64,000 bases of DNA, taken from IMG/VR virus record IMGVR_UViG_3300044614_002195, positions 96,001 through 160,000 of that record; one strand, 5' to 3'. Each line of letters starts with the position of its first letter. Position 1 is the first letter of the stretch. The position numbers and the translations under genes were made by a program. Positions 553 through 61,647 of the stretch are shown piece after piece. The DNA is from a virus. The notes under the pieces were generated by a model, which was not told where the DNA came from, made no database searches, and worked only from the letters and a program-made list of their open reading frames with translations.

Positions 553-2268
553 CTAGCTCTCCCTGCCGGCGCTACTGCTAGGTCCTGTAAGGCTTGAGTC
601 GCCTATTACCATATAGGCAGCACATACCGCAAATACAAGGCTATGCATAGCGTCGTCAGGCTGCTTGGGGTGGTGATCGTAGATTAGCTCCTGTCCATAC
701 AAACCGTCTTTGACTTCAATGTATATGTTCAAGAGATCTTGCATATATTCCGAAACTTCGCCCCAAGAAGGAAAAAGTATCTTGCCTGCTTTAATTTGCC
801 TGATAACTAGAGATATCACATCAGATCTATGTAGAACCCATCTGTTCTGCCTCCAGTCGTACACACCCGGCTCAAAGTGCTGAATCATTTTTGTTCTTCT
901 ATAGGCAGCCATTTGAGATCTGTTAGGGTCTGTAAGTTCACATAGTTTAATTCCCCTGATAGGATCAGGACCTGAGTCAGATACGCAAAAGGCGTTTACA
1001 CTATTAGCGTGATCAGCTATGGCTCTAATGTGTGCCTCGTAATCAAACCCACGATATATTTTAGCAGAAATTATTTCGTAAACTCCATCTGAGCGTATTC
1101 CGCCCAGTGTAGCTACCGTTCTAGACTGCGCCATACTCACACCCCAATCCACCCCCATAGTATATGCAGTGTACCTAGCCTTATTTTTATTTAAGATAGC
1201 AAAATTATACTCATTACCGTCTACGTACTGTGATCCTAGCAAACATACTTTAACAAGTTCTTCTTGTGTGATTGGTTTTGACCCTATGTCATATGACAGC
1301 CCTAGAGTTTCATTCATAACCACTCTAAGCTCGTTTTTACCGCTATGTACTTTTTGATAAATTTCTTTCCACTCTTTAGGGTCCTCGTTGAAGTGAGGCA
1401 AGAGAGGCTGAGCTAGATGATAGCCGGTGATTAGATAATCGCTAGGGTTCATGCTCACCCATTCACCATCTCGAGAGTTTAATACTTTTGAACACTTCGA
1501 ACAGCTGAAACCGTGAGGCTGAATCATCTTCAGAGGATCATTTCCTTCTGTAAGAGAATTCCAATGATTACAGCCTGTACACTTCATCATCCATTCAAGC
1601 TGATTGGATGTTTTCCACATTCTATGAATAGTATTTGTAGAATCAAGAGGTGTACCGGCAAAAATTTCCCTTTTATAAGGGCTCATGGCCATAGTTTCCT
1701 GAATAATAGGAATCTGGTCGTGCTGGATATCCTGGACTTCATCATACACAACACAATCTATAGCAGGTCCACGAGTTCTGGTAGCATCGTCACTCACATA
1801 GCGAAACAAAACGCTGCTGTGCGTGTCATCCAATATCTTCTCAAACACATCATTCTTAAACCATCCTTTTACTAATAAATTTTTAATTTTTGGGCTCTCG
1901 AATCTTGGAGGAATATAGTTACTTGAAAAATACTTAGTAGTAAGCTCCTGAGGGCCGACATACATCATCTTGAAATAGTTCCAACGTATCAAATTAAGAC
2001 AAATAAAATTACTTAAAAGTGTAGACTTAAGAGTCTTACGGCTGCACTTTAATAAAAGTTTTTGAGGCATATTGTCATAAATATGCTTCAACATCGGGAA
2101 AGCATCTAGTTTCTGCAGCCGCCCTTCATTATCGTACAGATAATTCTCGACAAAATGTGAAGGCGGAAGTACCGAAAATATTAATTGTCGAGCAATAAAC
2201 GCTGACTTCGCATTGTTTTTGCGTAGCAGCTTTTCCACAGTGTCCTTAATTGTAACATGATACGACAT
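553..2268 (-). CDS. terL: Terminase large subunit (GpA-like)
   Basis: 571 aa. Walker A-like KCSRKTLKST, VVYDEVQD (Walker B), AGTP motif, CxxC..CxxC Zn motif (CTGC/CSKC), RNase H-like nuclease MGVDWG...PDDAMH. Confidence 0.88.
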   Translation of the reverse strand: MSYHVTIKDTVEKLLRKNNAKSAFIARQLIFSVLPPSHFVENYLYDNEGRLQKLDAFPMLKHIYDNMPQKLLLKCSRKTLKSTLLSNFICLNLIRWNYFKMMYVGPQELTTKYFSSNYIPPRFESPKIKNLLVKGWFKNDVFEKILDDTHSSVLFRYVSDDATRTRGPAIDCVVYDEVQDIQHDQIPIIQETMAMSPYKREIFAGTPLDSTNTIHRMWKTSNQLEWMMKCTGCNHWNSLTEGNDPLKMIQPHGFSCSKCSKVLNSRDGEWVSMNPSDYLITGYHLAQPLLPHFNEDPKEWKEIYQKVHSGKNELRVVMNETLGLSYDIGSKPITQEELVKVCLLGSQYVDGNEYNFAILNKNKARYTAYTMGVDWGVSMAQSRTVATLGGIRSDGVYEIISAKIYRGFDYEAHIRAIADHANSVNAFCVSDSGPDPIRGIKLCELTDPNRSQMAAYRRTKMIQHFEPGVYDWRQNRWVLHRSDVISLVIRQIKAGKILFPSWGEVSEYMQDLLNIYIEVKDGLYGQELIYDHHPKQPDDAMHSLVFAVCAAYMVIGDSSLTGPSSSAGRES

Positions 2269-2444: not shown

Positions 2445-2612
2445 ATGAGTAGAACTATTAGAAAATATCAGGTCAGAGATAAACGAAATCGGTATAAGCA
2501 GATCGAACGTCAAAAGCTGGAAGACCAGTATTATACAGATGTAGCAAAATCGCATGACAGAAAAATCCGTAAAAAGGGTCTTCGAGAAGAAGAATCCGAC
2601 GAACAGCAGTGA
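2445..2612 (+). CDS. Small basic hypothetical protein
   Basis: ATG at 2445 (MSRTIRK...), 55 aa, just downstream of the putative promoter. Confidence 0.5.
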   Translation: MSRTIRKYQVRDKRNRYKQIERQKLEDQYYTDVAKSHDRKIRKKGLREEESDEQQ

Positions 2613-3144
2613 TATAAGTAATATAAAAAGAGGGCGAGGAAGACCAAAGGGCGCCAAAAATAAACCAAAAGTTGAATCTGTTCCGACTGTAGCTAAAAAA
2701 AGAGGTCGGCCTAAGGGTTCAAAGAACAAAGTTAAAACAAGCAGTTATCAGGAAATTCAAGTAAAAGGTAAGTACCTTAACCCTATAGCTTCGGCTAAAC
2801 CTGAAATAGCTCGCATTCCTAAACCTCCAGGTAAAAGAGGAAGACCTAGGAAAAACGATAACCCACTAGCTGCGTCTTCAGTTAAAAAAGAAGAGCAGAA
2901 GGCTGAACTACCTACAACATCAGGTAATCATCCCTTATTTCCAGCCGTAGCCTGGCTTGAAAAAAATATGCATCACAACGAGCTGCAATACTATCGCAGT
3001 CGTGCGCACAAAATAGGCTCAACCATACAGGTAGCCATAGCTTCAGACATCCTGGGTTTCTTTAATGTTCAGGATGCGGAGATATGCAAACAAATCAAGA
3101 AAAACACATTCATCGCAAGCGTAACAAAACATGAACTGCATTAA
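2554..3144 (+). CDS. AT-hook DNA-binding protein
   Basis: Three AT-hooks: KRGRGRPKG, KKRGRPKG, GKRGRPRK; small helical C-terminal domain. Start uncertain. Confidence 0.75.
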   Translation: MTEKSVKRVFEKKNPTNSSDISNIKRGRGRPKGAKNKPKVESVPTVAKKRGRPKGSKNKVKTSSYQEIQVKGKYLNPIASAKPEIARIPKPPGKRGRPRKNDNPLAASSVKKEEQKAELPTTSGNHPLFPAVAWLEKNMHHNELQYYRSRAHKIGSTIQVAIASDILGFFNVQDAEICKQIKKNTFIASVTKHELH

Positions 3145-4720
3145 TAAAATCAAAAACTATCAAAGAGCCGGCTATTCTGGTGTATTCGTACTAACTCACG
3201 AAGAAGCCAGATTCATGCTCGAGCTTACAACTCTAAGCAACTTAGAGTATAATGCTCTCAACATTGTCGAATGGGACACACAGAAAGGCCTTCTATTCCG
3301 ATCAGGAAAAACTAAAATAGGGTTTCAAGAGGACACTACTAAAAACACTAGCGATCTACTGGAATATATTCAAAATTATTCGCAGACCAATACAATCTTT
3401 GTGTTGAAAGATTTTCATCTGCATTTTGATAAAATTCTCAATATTCGTCTATTGAGGAACGCTTGGAATAACCTAAAGCGAATGGGTAATATGATTGTTT
3501 TTGTAGGGCATAAATACGCAGTACCCGGCGAGCTCCAAAAGGAGGTACAGCTACTAGACTATGACCTTCCAAATATAGAAGCACTTACCGAGAGGTTGAT
3601 GTATATCAAAAGCTCGATTGATAAAGGCAGAGAAGAGGCAGGTAAGGCGCCTACTGAGCTTGATAACAGTATTATAGAGGCAGCAACGGAAGCTGCGAGA
3701 GGCATGACCAGCCTTGAGGCTGAGAACGCTTTTGCTTCCGCCTGGACAGAAACCGGAAAGTTTAATAGCGTTTTTGTTGAAGCAGTATTTAAAGAAAAAA
3801 TTGCGCAGCTTAAAAAGAACGGATTGTTGACCTACATGGAGCCAAACATCAGCTTTGATAATGTTGGCGGCATGCAAGGCCTAAAAACCTGGCTAACTAC
3901 TAGGAAAAAAGCGTACGCTAAAGAAGCTAGAGCATACAATCTACCTTTACCTAAGGGTATGCTATTGGCCAGTGTGCCAGGTACTGGGAAAAGTCTGATT
4001 TGTAAGGCAATTGCTAAAGAGTTTGACTGCCCGCTGTTTGCTCTGGATATTGGTAGCGTATTTGATTCGCTTGTTGGTAGCAGCGAAAAGAATATGCGAG
4101 AGATCATTAAAACTGTTGAAAGCGTGGGTAAGTGTGTGATCTTGATTGACGAGATCGAGAAAAGCTTGAGTAACAGCGCAGTCAGTGGCTCTGGAGACAG
4201 TGGCGTAGGCAGCCGTATCTTCGGTACTTTCCTGAGCTGGCTAAATGACCGCACAAATCCTGCGTTCATTGTTGCCACCACGAACAACCACACACTGTTG
4301 CCTGCAGCATTGATCCGCAAGGGTCGTTTTGATCAACTGTTCTGGGTAGACCTACCTACAGCAGAAGAGCGTAAAGAAATCTTCACTGTCGTGATTAATA
4401 AGTATAATAGAGATCCAAAAAACTTCTCTATTAAAACTTTAGTAAACGGCTCTGAAAACTTTACAGGCGCCGAGATTGAAGAAGTGTTTAAAGACGCGCT
4501 ATACAAAGCGTTTGATGCTGGTGAAGAAATTAATGATAGCCATGTTATGGAGGTACTGTCGGAGTTTATTCCGTTCGCAGTGTCACATGAAGAAGATCTA
4601 AAGACGATGCGCAAGCAAGCGCAAGGTAAGCTAGTTATGGTAAACAGTAAAGGTGATCCTATTGCTGACGTTCAGAAAAACATGAGAAAGCTGAGTATTG
4701 CAATCGGGGTAGAAGAGTAA
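3131..4720 (+). CDS. Ycf46-like AAA+ ATPase (degenerate N-terminal AAA plus active AAA)
   Basis: 529 aa. FVLKDFH in the N-domain, FDNVGG, SVPGTGKS Walker A, ILIDEIEK Walker B, ATTN..LPAALIRKGRFD, FTGAEIE. Confidence 0.88.
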   Translation: MNCINKIKNYQRAGYSGVFVLTHEEARFMLELTTLSNLEYNALNIVEWDTQKGLLFRSGKTKIGFQEDTTKNTSDLLEYIQNYSQTNTIFVLKDFHLHFDKILNIRLLRNAWNNLKRMGNMIVFVGHKYAVPGELQKEVQLLDYDLPNIEALTERLMYIKSSIDKGREEAGKAPTELDNSIIEAATEAARGMTSLEAENAFASAWTETGKFNSVFVEAVFKEKIAQLKKNGLLTYMEPNISFDNVGGMQGLKTWLTTRKKAYAKEARAYNLPLPKGMLLASVPGTGKSLICKAIAKEFDCPLFALDIGSVFDSLVGSSEKNMREIIKTVESVGKCVILIDEIEKSLSNSAVSGSGDSGVGSRIFGTFLSWLNDRTNPAFIVATTNNHTLLPAALIRKGRFDQLFWVDLPTAEERKEIFTVVINKYNRDPKNFSIKTLVNGSENFTGAEIEEVFKDALYKAFDAGEEINDSHVMEVLSEFIPFAVSHEEDLKTMRKQAQGKLVMVNSKGDPIADVQKNMRKLSIAIGVEE

Positions 4721-38518: not shown

Positions 38519-38586
38519 CCACGAACCCAATGGTAGTAGGTTGGGCTGTAATTGGAATGTAGCAGCCTGTGAATCCTGCTGAGATT

Positions 38587-38671
38587 GCGACACATGCCAC
38601 TCTGGATAGCTCGGGGTGTTTGGACTGGGAATTCTCAGTCGACTAAGTTGTGTGACACTGGGAGAGACTAG
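38587..38671 (+). ncRNA. Structured RNA motif, copy 1 (family unassigned)
   Basis: GCG-ACACA ... TGTGT-GACA-CTGG(GAGAGA)CTAG with internal hairpins; ends 10 nt before the tmRNA. Confidence 0.55.
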
Positions 38672-38681
38672 ACAATTTTAA

Positions 38682-39072
38682 GGGGGTGATTTGGTTTCGA
38701 CTAGATATGAGCCCTTATAGATGCATGTAGAGGAAGCCTGGTAGGCCTCTTAAAAAATCTAGGCAAAATAAACGCAGAGTCCTTTGACTACGCTCCCTCA
38801 GTAGCAGAAGCAGACGCATTCCTCGAAGCCACTGGCTTCGTTGGTGCTGAGCTCCTCGCTGCATAAGGTACAGGCCGGATGCTATTAAAAGCCTGTAAAC
38901 GTTAGTAGCTAGTGCTTGAAATTAGGACTGTTATTCAAGCAGAACAAGAACGGTTCAAAAGAAATTATATAGTTTGATTGTTGACGCTATAATTTCTTGC
39001 AAAAAACAATCTAAGCATGTAGATTCTATAAGATAAGTATTTAGGACAGGGGTTCAACTCCCCTCACCTCCA
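38682..39072 (+). ncRNA. ssrA: tmRNA; tag ORF 38774-38866 AESFDYAPSVAEADAFLEATGFVGAELLAA
   Basis: 5' GGGGGTG pairs with 3' CACCTCC-A including G3.U; TTCGAC; T-arm GACAGGGGTTCAACTCCCCT; pk1 AGAGG/CCTCT plus CCTGG/CTAGG; tag ends in LAA. CCA is not encoded. Confidence 0.95.
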
Positions 39073-39080
39073 CTTTTAAT

Positions 39081-39154
39081 CGCGGGATAGTGAAGTGGCA
39101 AAACAGGAGTCTCATAAGCTCCAGTCCCAGGTTCGATTCCTGGTCCCGCAACCA
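39081..39154 (+). tRNA. tRNA-Met(CAT) with initiator-type acceptor stem
   Basis: CGCGGGA/TCCCGCA with C1xA72, loop CTCATAA, CCA encoded. Confidence 0.9.
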
Positions 39155-39158
39155 ATTT

Positions 39159-39243
39159 GGGTAGTTCGCATAGCGGCTATTGCAGGAGACTGTAAATCTC
39201 CCCTCTTCGGAGACCGATGGTTCGAGTCCATCACTGCCCACCA
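39159..39243 (+). tRNA. tRNA-Tyr(GTA)
   Basis: GGGTAGT/ACTGCCC, loop CTGTAAA, long variable arm, CCA. Confidence 0.93.
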
Positions 39244-39244
39244 G

Positions 39245-39319
39245 GCCAGCATAGCTCAGTGGTAGAGCATTGGTTTTGTAAACCAACGGTCGTCGGTTCA
39301 ATCCCGACTGCTGGCTCCA
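39245..39319 (+). tRNA. tRNA-Thr(TGT)
   Basis: GCCAGCA/TGCTGGC, loop TTTGTAA, CCA. Confidence 0.93.
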
Positions 39320-39341
39320 TATTTTCTCCTCCAATTGGAGA

Positions 39342-39427
39342 GCGACACCTGCTGGTGGCTCAGTGCCATCAAGCCCTGATTGGGTCCATCCCTATTTGGG
39401 AAGTGGTGTGACACTGGGAGAGACCAG
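39342..39427 (+). ncRNA. Structured RNA motif, copy 2
   Basis: GCG-ACACC ... GGTGT-GACA-CTGG(GAGAGA)CCAG; ends 6 nt before tRNA-Asn. Confidence 0.55.
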
Positions 39428-39433
39428 GCATAC

Positions 39434-39508
39434 TCCTAGATAGCTCAATGGTAGAGCATTCGGCTGTTAACCGAACGGTTCCTGGTTCGAGTCCAGGTCT
39501 AGGAGCCA
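39434..39508 (+). tRNA. tRNA-Asn(GTT)
   Basis: TCCTAGA/TCTAGGA, loop CTGTTAA, CCA. Confidence 0.93.
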
Positions 39509-39519
39509 TTTTTTTAAAT

Positions 39520-39753
39520 ATGACAGATTGGATTACTACATTTTTATCTGTATTTTTCACAGATATCTTCTACACATACTATTTAAAAGCTGTACAAGAA
39601 AGCCATGCGCTTAAAGCTAGCTTTTGGGCTTCGGTTGTTTTTTGTATTGCTTGCGTCGCAGTTATAAACTATACGTCTAATCATGCCTTGCTTTTACCTG
39701 CGGCTCTCGGAGCCTTCCTGGGTACATATGTAGGTATAAAGTTAAAACAATGA
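39520..39753 (+). CDS. Small multi-TM membrane protein
   Basis: Start at 39520 (MTDWIT), 77 aa hydrophobic, GAFLGTY motif. Confidence 0.7.
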   Translation: MTDWITTFLSVFFTDIFYTYYLKAVQESHALKASFWASVVFCIACVAVINYTSNHALLLPAALGAFLGTYVGIKLKQ

Positions 39754-61320: not shown

Positions 61321-61396
61321 GGGATTGTAGCTCAATGGTCAGAGCAGGCGACTCATAATCGCTTGGTTGGGGGTTCGAATCCCTCCAGTCCCACCA
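61321..61396 (+). tRNA. tRNA-Ile2(CAT, lysidine type)
   Basis: Anticodon arm AGAGCAGGCGACTCATAATCGCTTGGT as in bacterial tRNA-Ile2; paired G1-C72; CCA. Confidence 0.85.
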
Positions 61397-61407
61397 TTTT
61401 TTGATTA

Positions 61408-61495
61408 GGCTAAGTGGCGAAATGGCAGACGCAACGGACTTAAAATCCGTTGAGGAGCAATCCTCGTGAGGGTTCGAGTCCCTCCTTAGCTACCA
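61408..61495 (+). tRNA. tRNA-Leu(TAA)
   Basis: GGCTAAG/CTTAGCT, loop CTTAAAA, long variable arm, CCA. Confidence 0.93.
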
Positions 61496-61504
61496 TTTTA
61501 ATAT

Positions 61505-61564
61505 ATGTATTTACTCGTAATAGCCGCCATAGCCGTAACAATTTTCAACATCAGTAAGAAATAA
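61505..61564 (+). CDS. 19-aa hydrophobic micro-ORF between tRNAs
   Basis: MYLLVIAAIAVTIFNISKK. Confidence 0.35.
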   Translation: MYLLVIAAIAVTIFNISKK

Positions 61565-61570
61565 CTTTCT

Positions 61571-61647
61571 GTGCCTGTAGCTCAGCTGGATAGAGCAACG
61601 GATTTCTAATCCGTTGGTCGCAGGTTCAAATCCTGCCAGGCACGCCA
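61571..61647 (+). tRNA. tRNA-Arg(TCT)
   Basis: GTGCCTG/CAGGCAC, loop TTTCTAA, CCA. Confidence 0.93.

Follow-up and report, generated by a model that had tools for sequence, protein, structure and literature searches.

Introduction

The put RNAs of phage HK022, putL and putR, are protein-independent processive antiterminators that act through the RNA polymerase beta-prime zinc-binding domain. Each is made of two adjacent stem-loops, begins CGAACGGC and has AGGAUGA-type loops (PMC9378689). Phages also encode small self-cleaving ribozymes. These include the hammerhead, twister, twister-sister, pistol and hatchet classes, and the HDV-like theta ribozymes found next to phage tRNAs (PMC10879173). 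Theta ribozymes adopt a nested double-pseudoknot fold and their cleavage site abuts the tRNA 3' end. The abiF RNA motif (Rfam RF03085) is a short phage- or prophage-borne hairpin RNA that occurs in repeats and is an RNA antitoxin that binds AbiF (PMC12373285). In prophages, UG27 reverse transcriptases are accompanied by variable tandem arrays of structurally conserved, sequence-diverse RNA units (bioRxiv 10.64898/2026.09.22.753630). Finally, the T4 stable RNAs species 1 and 2 (rnaC and rnaD) are non-tRNA genes embedded in a phage tRNA cluster.

Here, we examined a 64,000 nt stretch of viral DNA, referred to as the window, corresponding to positions 96,001 to 160,000 of the 198-kb IMG/VR record IMGVR_UViG_3300044614_002195. 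A repeated, covarying RNA structure had been predicted, from sequence alone, immediately 5' of the tmRNA and of tRNA-Asn. We show that both repeats belong to a family of small folded RNAs that has no match in Rfam 15. The family recurs, almost unchanged, in phages and prophages of at least 14 bacterial phyla.

Results

Two copies of an RNA module precede the tmRNA and tRNA-Asn

We first sought to confirm that the repeats are real. The sequence GTGTGACACTGGGAGAGAC lies at positions 38650-38668 and 39406-39424. Allowing three mismatches, these remain the only matches in the window, compared to 0.01 expected from 100 shuffles. The 19-mer also occurs only twice in the whole virus record. In each case, GCGACAC is found 63-64 nt upstream (38587-38593 and 39342-39348), and the 19-mer is in the 3' half of a roughly 90-nt element. 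Hence, the observation behind the original prediction is confirmed.

Copy 1 (38587-38675, + strand) begins with helix P1 (ACACA/UGUGU; 38590-94 with 38649-53). The P1 loop contains two insert hairpins, P1a (38598-605 with 38611-18) and P1b (38623-29 with 38634-40), creating a three-way junction. A GACA linker (38654-57) connects P1 to hairpin P2 (38658-61 with 38668-71), which has a GAGAGA loop (38662-67) and is followed by an ACAA tail. Copy 2 (39342-39431, + strand) has the same arrangement. P1 is ACACC/GGUGU (39345-49 with 39405-09) and the insert contains three hairpins, P1a (39353-59 with 39365-71), P1b (39373-76 with 39382-85) and P1c (39389-92 with 39398-401), creating a four-way junction. 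The GACA linker is at 39410-13 and P2 is at 39414-17 with 39424-27, with the GAGAGA loop at 39418-23. The P2 hairpin is CUGG-GAGAGA-CUAG in copy 1 and CUGG-GAGAGA-CCAG in copy 2, with G.U pairing in copy 1 versus G-C in copy 2. An additional hairpin, P0, precedes each copy. For copy 1, this is AGCAG/CUGCU with a 10-nt loop (38561-38580, +) and the same segment is conserved upstream of copy-1-type units in related contigs. For copy 2, P0 is CUCC-AAUU-GGAG (39329-39340, +) and relatives carry CCCC-AAUU-GGGG.

All of the interior hairpins in the original prediction fold as described. Single-sequence folding energies are not exceptional (z from -0.9 to -2.1), so support for the structure comes from comparative data. 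Using RNAalifold for copy 1, with 17 relatives, 11 of 23 predicted pairs showed compensatory changes. For copy 2, with 14 relatives, 8 of 19 pairs did so. These changes include the insert hairpins.

We used ARAGORN and Rfam to locate flanking genes. The tmRNA (38682-39075, +; RF00023, 148.6 bits) starts 10 nt after the P2 hairpin of copy 1. It encodes an unusually long 30-residue tag (AESFDYAPSVAEADAFLEATGFVGAELLAA; 38774-38866) compared to about 10 residues in typical bacteria. The genes for tRNA-Met, tRNA-Tyr and tRNA-Thr (39081-39319, +) follow. These are packed 1-7 nt apart, including the gap from tmRNA to tRNA-Met, and there is no module between them. The gene for tRNA-Asn (39434-39508, +) starts 6 nt after the P2 hairpin of copy 2 and is followed by a T-run. 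A listed 101-aa open reading frame (39448-39753) starts inside tRNA-Asn; its real start is probably the ATG near 39521, after the T-run. A second cluster (Met, Leu and Arg; 61321-61647) has no copy of the module. Thus, six of the eight tRNA/tmRNA genes in the window lack the element.

The module belongs to a large and widespread family

We next sought to understand how common the module is. An exact 16-mer from the 3' half occurs in 90 stretches of IMG/VR contigs, nearly all with the full architecture. Two looser patterns (GGTGTGAC or GGCGTGAC, 3-8 nt, GGAGAGAC) returned at least 120 and at least 117 viral stretches, and overall the pattern scans found the core in hundreds of uncultured viral contigs. 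A specific 20-nt variant was found in at least 120 stretches of bacterial contigs, in a set with one genome per species. The bacterial records span Alpha-, Beta- and Gammaproteobacteria, Bacillota, Planctomycetota, Cyanobacteriota, Bacteroidota, Verrucomicrobiota, Chloroflexota, Acidobacteriota, Gemmatimonadota, Myxococcota, Bdellovibrionota and Patescibacteria. Flanking genes in these genomes are typical of phages, for instance portal, capsid, terminase and Mu gp36.

A blastn search of GenBank phages with the window copies found nothing. Conversely, cultured carriers were identified when GC-rich family members were used as queries. These are E. coli lambdoid phage mEp390, Morganella IME1369_02, Providencia PSTRCR_117lys, Pseudomonas Itty13 and Medea1, Ralstonia Eline and relatives, Cronobacter CS01, Stenotrophomonas Pokken, and Planktothrix, Microcystis and Phaeobacter phages. 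In every case, the module lies where the records annotate nothing or only a doubtful small ORF. The phage represented by the window is distant from all cultured phages; its DNA polymerase is only about 23% identical to the nearest one.

The shared core is about 40 nt long. It consists of (G)-N-R, the P1 5' strand ACNNC, a loop or insert, the P1 3' strand GNNGU, an invariant GAC-A linker, P2 and then A(C). P1 is 5 bp in nearly all members. P2 is 4 bp (48%) or 5 bp (45%), counting an invariant G-C pair that closes the GAGAGA loop. About 16 positions are near-invariant across the phyla. The P1 loop is a permissive insertion site, ranging from 4 nt to about 100 nt, that can hold one to three hairpins. 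Some of these inserts form conserved sub-families.

P1 and P2 covary

Both helices covary strongly. For P2, we took 486 distinct sites without any pairing filter. The three stem positions next to the fixed G-C pair are paired in 96, 93 and 88% of sites, compared to 44, 64 and 43% after shuffling the arms, and all Watson-Crick pair types occur. For P1, a strict Watson-Crick complement of a site's own 3' strand lies within 140 nt upstream in 67% of 491 sites. This fell to 16% when the strand of another site was used. In a set of 114 short-loop units, P1 has 52 cells with changes on both sides, compared to 9.9 in shuffles (0 of 500 as high), and the signal collapses when the partner is slid. Note that this last set was chosen for pairing, so only its pair-type diversity counts as evidence.

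The module matches no described RNA family in Rfam 15

A match to an Rfam family would have removed the novelty of the element. Hence, we compared it with the whole of Rfam 15, including tRNA, tmRNA, all ribozyme classes, and the manA, wcaG, glnA, c4 and RAGATH motifs. There was no hit on either copy at the gathering threshold or at E<=10. Similarly, there was no hit to the module in 25 diverse carrier loci (sets of 12 and 13), where the only signals were sub-threshold abiF-like hairpins lying between units and not on them. ARAGORN and the Rfam tRNA model (RF00005) call only the flanking genes; although copy 2 has a four-way junction, it lacks tRNA loop signatures. Searches of the literature by sequence and by keyword found no description of the family.

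We built a covariance model of the core, R1, which recovers copy 1 (32.9 bits, E 8e-6) and copy 2 (28.2 bits, E 9e-5). With R1 there was no hit at the put sites of HK022, and nothing above noise (best 3.4 bits, E 1.8) in the T4 tRNA/rnaC/rnaD region with filters off, although rnaC and rnaD resemble the module in being non-tRNA elements embedded in a phage tRNA cluster. Like the put RNAs, the module is a cis-encoded phage RNA of about 40-90 nt with two adjacent stem-loops, a very short linker and a GAAC-like start. However, the loops and stem II differ. In addition, the module occurs in many phyla, in tandem arrays, next to tRNA 5' ends and start codons, and mostly without a nearby promoter. 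The module shares with small phage ribozymes its small size and about 16 near-invariant nucleotides flanked by covarying helices of fixed length. Both tolerate optional peripheral inserts, lie in phage or prophage intergenic regions with unrelated neighbouring genes, and sit next to tRNAs. Even so, no Rfam ribozyme model, including the HDV family, matches. Furthermore, whereas theta ribozymes abut tRNA 3' ends, the module is two consecutive hairpins found 5' of tRNAs. The module and the abiF motif are both short phage- or prophage-borne hairpin RNAs that occur in repeats, but the sequence and fold differ, and no abiF or other toxin gene is linked to the module. UG27 units, like the module, form variable tandem arrays of structurally conserved, sequence-diverse RNAs in phages, but they are about 150 nt long, carry AUCN7UANAG and UUYA motifs, and lie beside a reverse transcriptase and two accessory genes. 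No conserved neighbouring gene was found for the module. TIGR arrays, which also have different units and dedicated proteins, do not fit either.

Position of the module with respect to neighbouring genes

We next considered genomic context. Units are co-oriented with flanking genes (358 versus 105) and essentially fill intergenic gaps. In outline, they end 2-12 nt before tRNA or tmRNA 5' ends, or 3-30 nt before start codons. Of 341 viral units, 36 end 0-34 nt before a tRNA or tmRNA 5' end, 33 of them within 2-12 nt. A further 126 end within 60 nt of an ORF start, with peaks at 8-11 nt and 18 nt, and 72 are followed by another unit. Up to five units occur in a row, as in L112 (L numbers denote individual carrier loci). 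The upstream gene encodes a major capsid protein in at least 16 of 148 cases. Among 147 downstream genes we found 47 Pfam and 105 PHROG families, none in more than 3. Clustering of 6,060 neighbouring ORFs identified no protein family in more than about 10% of loci.

The original prediction was that the repeats are an unannotated ncRNA family, perhaps a processing element or ribozyme liberating tRNA 5' ends, a tRNA-protecting decoy or a protein-binding RNA. This interpretation is partly supported. That there is an unannotated ncRNA family is strongly supported by the absence of an Rfam 15 match, the hundreds of homologues and the covariation of both helices. The functional suggestions are neither shown nor excluded by our data. 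A role specific to tRNA is unlikely because only about 10% of units precede tRNA or tmRNA; most precede protein genes or another unit, and six of the eight tRNA/tmRNA genes in the window lack the element.

The diversity of downstream genes also bears on whether the module could be a ligand-sensing riboswitch aptamer with a shared expression platform. The small, highly conserved core, sometimes in tandem and just upstream of ORFs, would suit such a role. Conversely, there is no coherent regulon and the module often precedes tRNAs. We also considered alternative pairing, as in a terminator or riboswitch, between GUGU of the P1 3' strand and ACAC after P2, ahead of a U-run. This does not covary with P1: units with GGCGU carry no matching complement, and the U-run is missing in GC-rich members. 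Hence, we regard a riboswitch as very unlikely.

All 35 non-redundant ORFs starting less than 12 nt after P2 lack their own Shine-Dalgarno sequence, and many share the pattern hairpin-ACNNUUUU-AUG. The purine loop (GGAG) and U-rich spacer could, in principle, recruit or position the 30S subunit, and the anti-Shine-Dalgarno sequence is universal. However, GGAG lies 16-19 nt from the AUG, which is too long a spacing, and is inside a 6-nt loop. Furthermore, 108 of 341 units precede a tRNA, a tmRNA or another unit, and variants in mEp390 (GAAAGA and GAAGAGA loops) lack GGAG. A translation-initiation element is therefore an unlikely explanation. The loop is also a poor candidate RegB site because it does not fit the consensus GGAGRAYARAA. 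We rejected GTGACA as a sigma-70 -35 box, or as a T7/SP6-like promoter, since GC-rich members have no -10 element and stem covariation points to RNA. A CsrA sponge is unlikely because the module is abundant in Alphaproteobacteria and Cyanobacteria, which largely lack CsrA.

In cultured phages, the module lies in long untranslated gaps at operon junctions. It is ahead of the terminase (late) genes in CS01, Itty13, Eline and IME1369_02, and at the head of a tRNA cluster in Pokken. In Itty13 (NC_070969), an 880-nt gene-free region (2452-3335) starts with the module and contains a tRNA-like sequence (about 2568-2670) with a long insertion, ahead of the small terminase gene. In mEp390 (NC_019721), two variant copies lie 150-400 nt downstream of a near-consensus PL-type promoter, in a leader of about 670 nt. 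This leader is conserved and unannotated in 36 of 5,426 complete E. coli genomes. The hypothetical gene gp36 of mEp390 (3229-3471) overlaps a module copy (3257-3312). RefSeq annotates no gene in the homologous stretch of the 36 E. coli prophages, so this ORF is probably spurious.

The location in mEp390, where a put site would sit, and the late-operon positions would fit a put-like, protein-independent modifier of host RNA polymerase. In this view, the nascent two-helix RNA would bind elongating polymerase and suppress pausing and termination across long untranslated or terminator-containing stretches, such as tRNA/tmRNA arrays, long leaders and late operons. RNA polymerase is universal, which would explain sequence invariance across phyla. 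Conversely, simple scans, which are crude, showed no consistent promoter upstream or terminator downstream in the window, IME1369_02, CS01 or Medea1. In addition, tight spacing to start codons and tRNA ends, arrays of up to five units, and placement right after capsid genes are not expected for an antiterminator. We consider this reading possible but less likely than that described below.

A tentative model for module function

Our analysis establishes a large, undescribed family of cis-encoded structured RNA modules carried by phages and prophages, together with its fold and distribution. Everything beyond the fold, including any cleavage, expression, polymerase modification or protein binding, is inference. 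Three facts constrain the mechanism. First, the sequence is near-invariant across phyla while no protein is linked, pointing to intrinsic activity or a universal host machine. Second, helix lengths are fixed around an invariant single-stranded linker. Third, the module sits tightly just upstream of functional 5' ends of both tRNAs and mRNAs, and just downstream of abundant mRNAs.

The reading that covers most of this, to which we assign a probability of only about 0.3, is a portable transcript-punctuation or insulator module in polycistronic phage RNA. The RNA would be cut at or next to the GAC-A linker, either by the RNA itself or by a universally conserved host RNase. The P1 domain would then cap the 3' end of the upstream RNA, for example a capsid mRNA, and P2 would cap the 5' end of the downstream tRNA, tmRNA or short-leader mRNA. 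In the window, this would separate the tmRNA/tRNA block and tRNA-Asn from upstream RNA, leaving 6-10-nt leaders for RNase P. Co-orientation, the filling of intergenic gaps, the spacing to downstream 5' ends, the lack of Shine-Dalgarno sequences and the capsid genes upstream are consistent with punctuation. The model remains tentative because no known ribozyme model matches, and the minimal core has no evident pseudoknot or internal-loop active site beyond the linker and the loop. Moreover, most tRNA/tmRNA genes in the window do without the module, tandem arrays with nothing between the units are not obviously needed for punctuation, and the promoter-proximal copies in mEp390 better fit an antiterminator.

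It is possible, though doubtful on present evidence, that the module is a new class of autonomous RNA device used by phages across the bacterial domain. This would be either a small self-cleaving ribozyme that punctuates polycistronic RNA and leaves hairpin-capped ends, or a protein-independent RNA that reprograms host RNA polymerase far beyond the lambdoid put elements. Structured RNA families that keep about 16 nucleotides invariant across a dozen or more phyla are rare, and those found so far have mostly turned out to be ribozymes, riboswitches or parts of core machinery. The family is also present in cultivable phage-host pairs (E. coli, Pseudomonas, Cronobacter, Morganella and Stenotrophomonas), making its function directly testable. 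If it processes or insulates transcripts, or acts on RNA polymerase, it would be a general principle of phage gene expression and a compact, portable part for synthetic biology.

Intergenic arrays contain other recurring hairpins

Tandem arrays of 2-5 units, with a constant handle and a variable insert, raise the possibility of a multivalent decoy or sponge for an RNA-binding protein, such as a host defence nuclease or toxin. Such a decoy would be made in bulk from late transcripts, and arrays sit directly after highly expressed capsid genes. Weak abiF-like hairpins (CC.G.CAAG ... CUCAAACCG.CGGG) are interleaved with the module in freshwater phage arrays, with no abiF gene nearby. These are found at L134 553-593 (23 bits against the Rfam cut-off of 37), at L112 about 900-948 (- strand), and upstream of units in L025, L034, L110, L137 and L142. 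They could be orphan antitoxin mimics. However, the resemblance is below the Rfam threshold, a decoy's partner would have to be conserved across at least 14 phyla, and no partner gene is linked to the module. Many phages, including that of the window, carry only single or well-separated copies. Hence, a decoy role is doubtful. A third recurring hairpin (GAGGUCAC-UAUG-GUGACUUC or similar) sits directly 5' of some units, at L112 about 770-820 (- strand) and upstream of type-A units in L010, L013, L042 and L051. This suggests that the intergenic arrays are mosaics of several small RNA modules.
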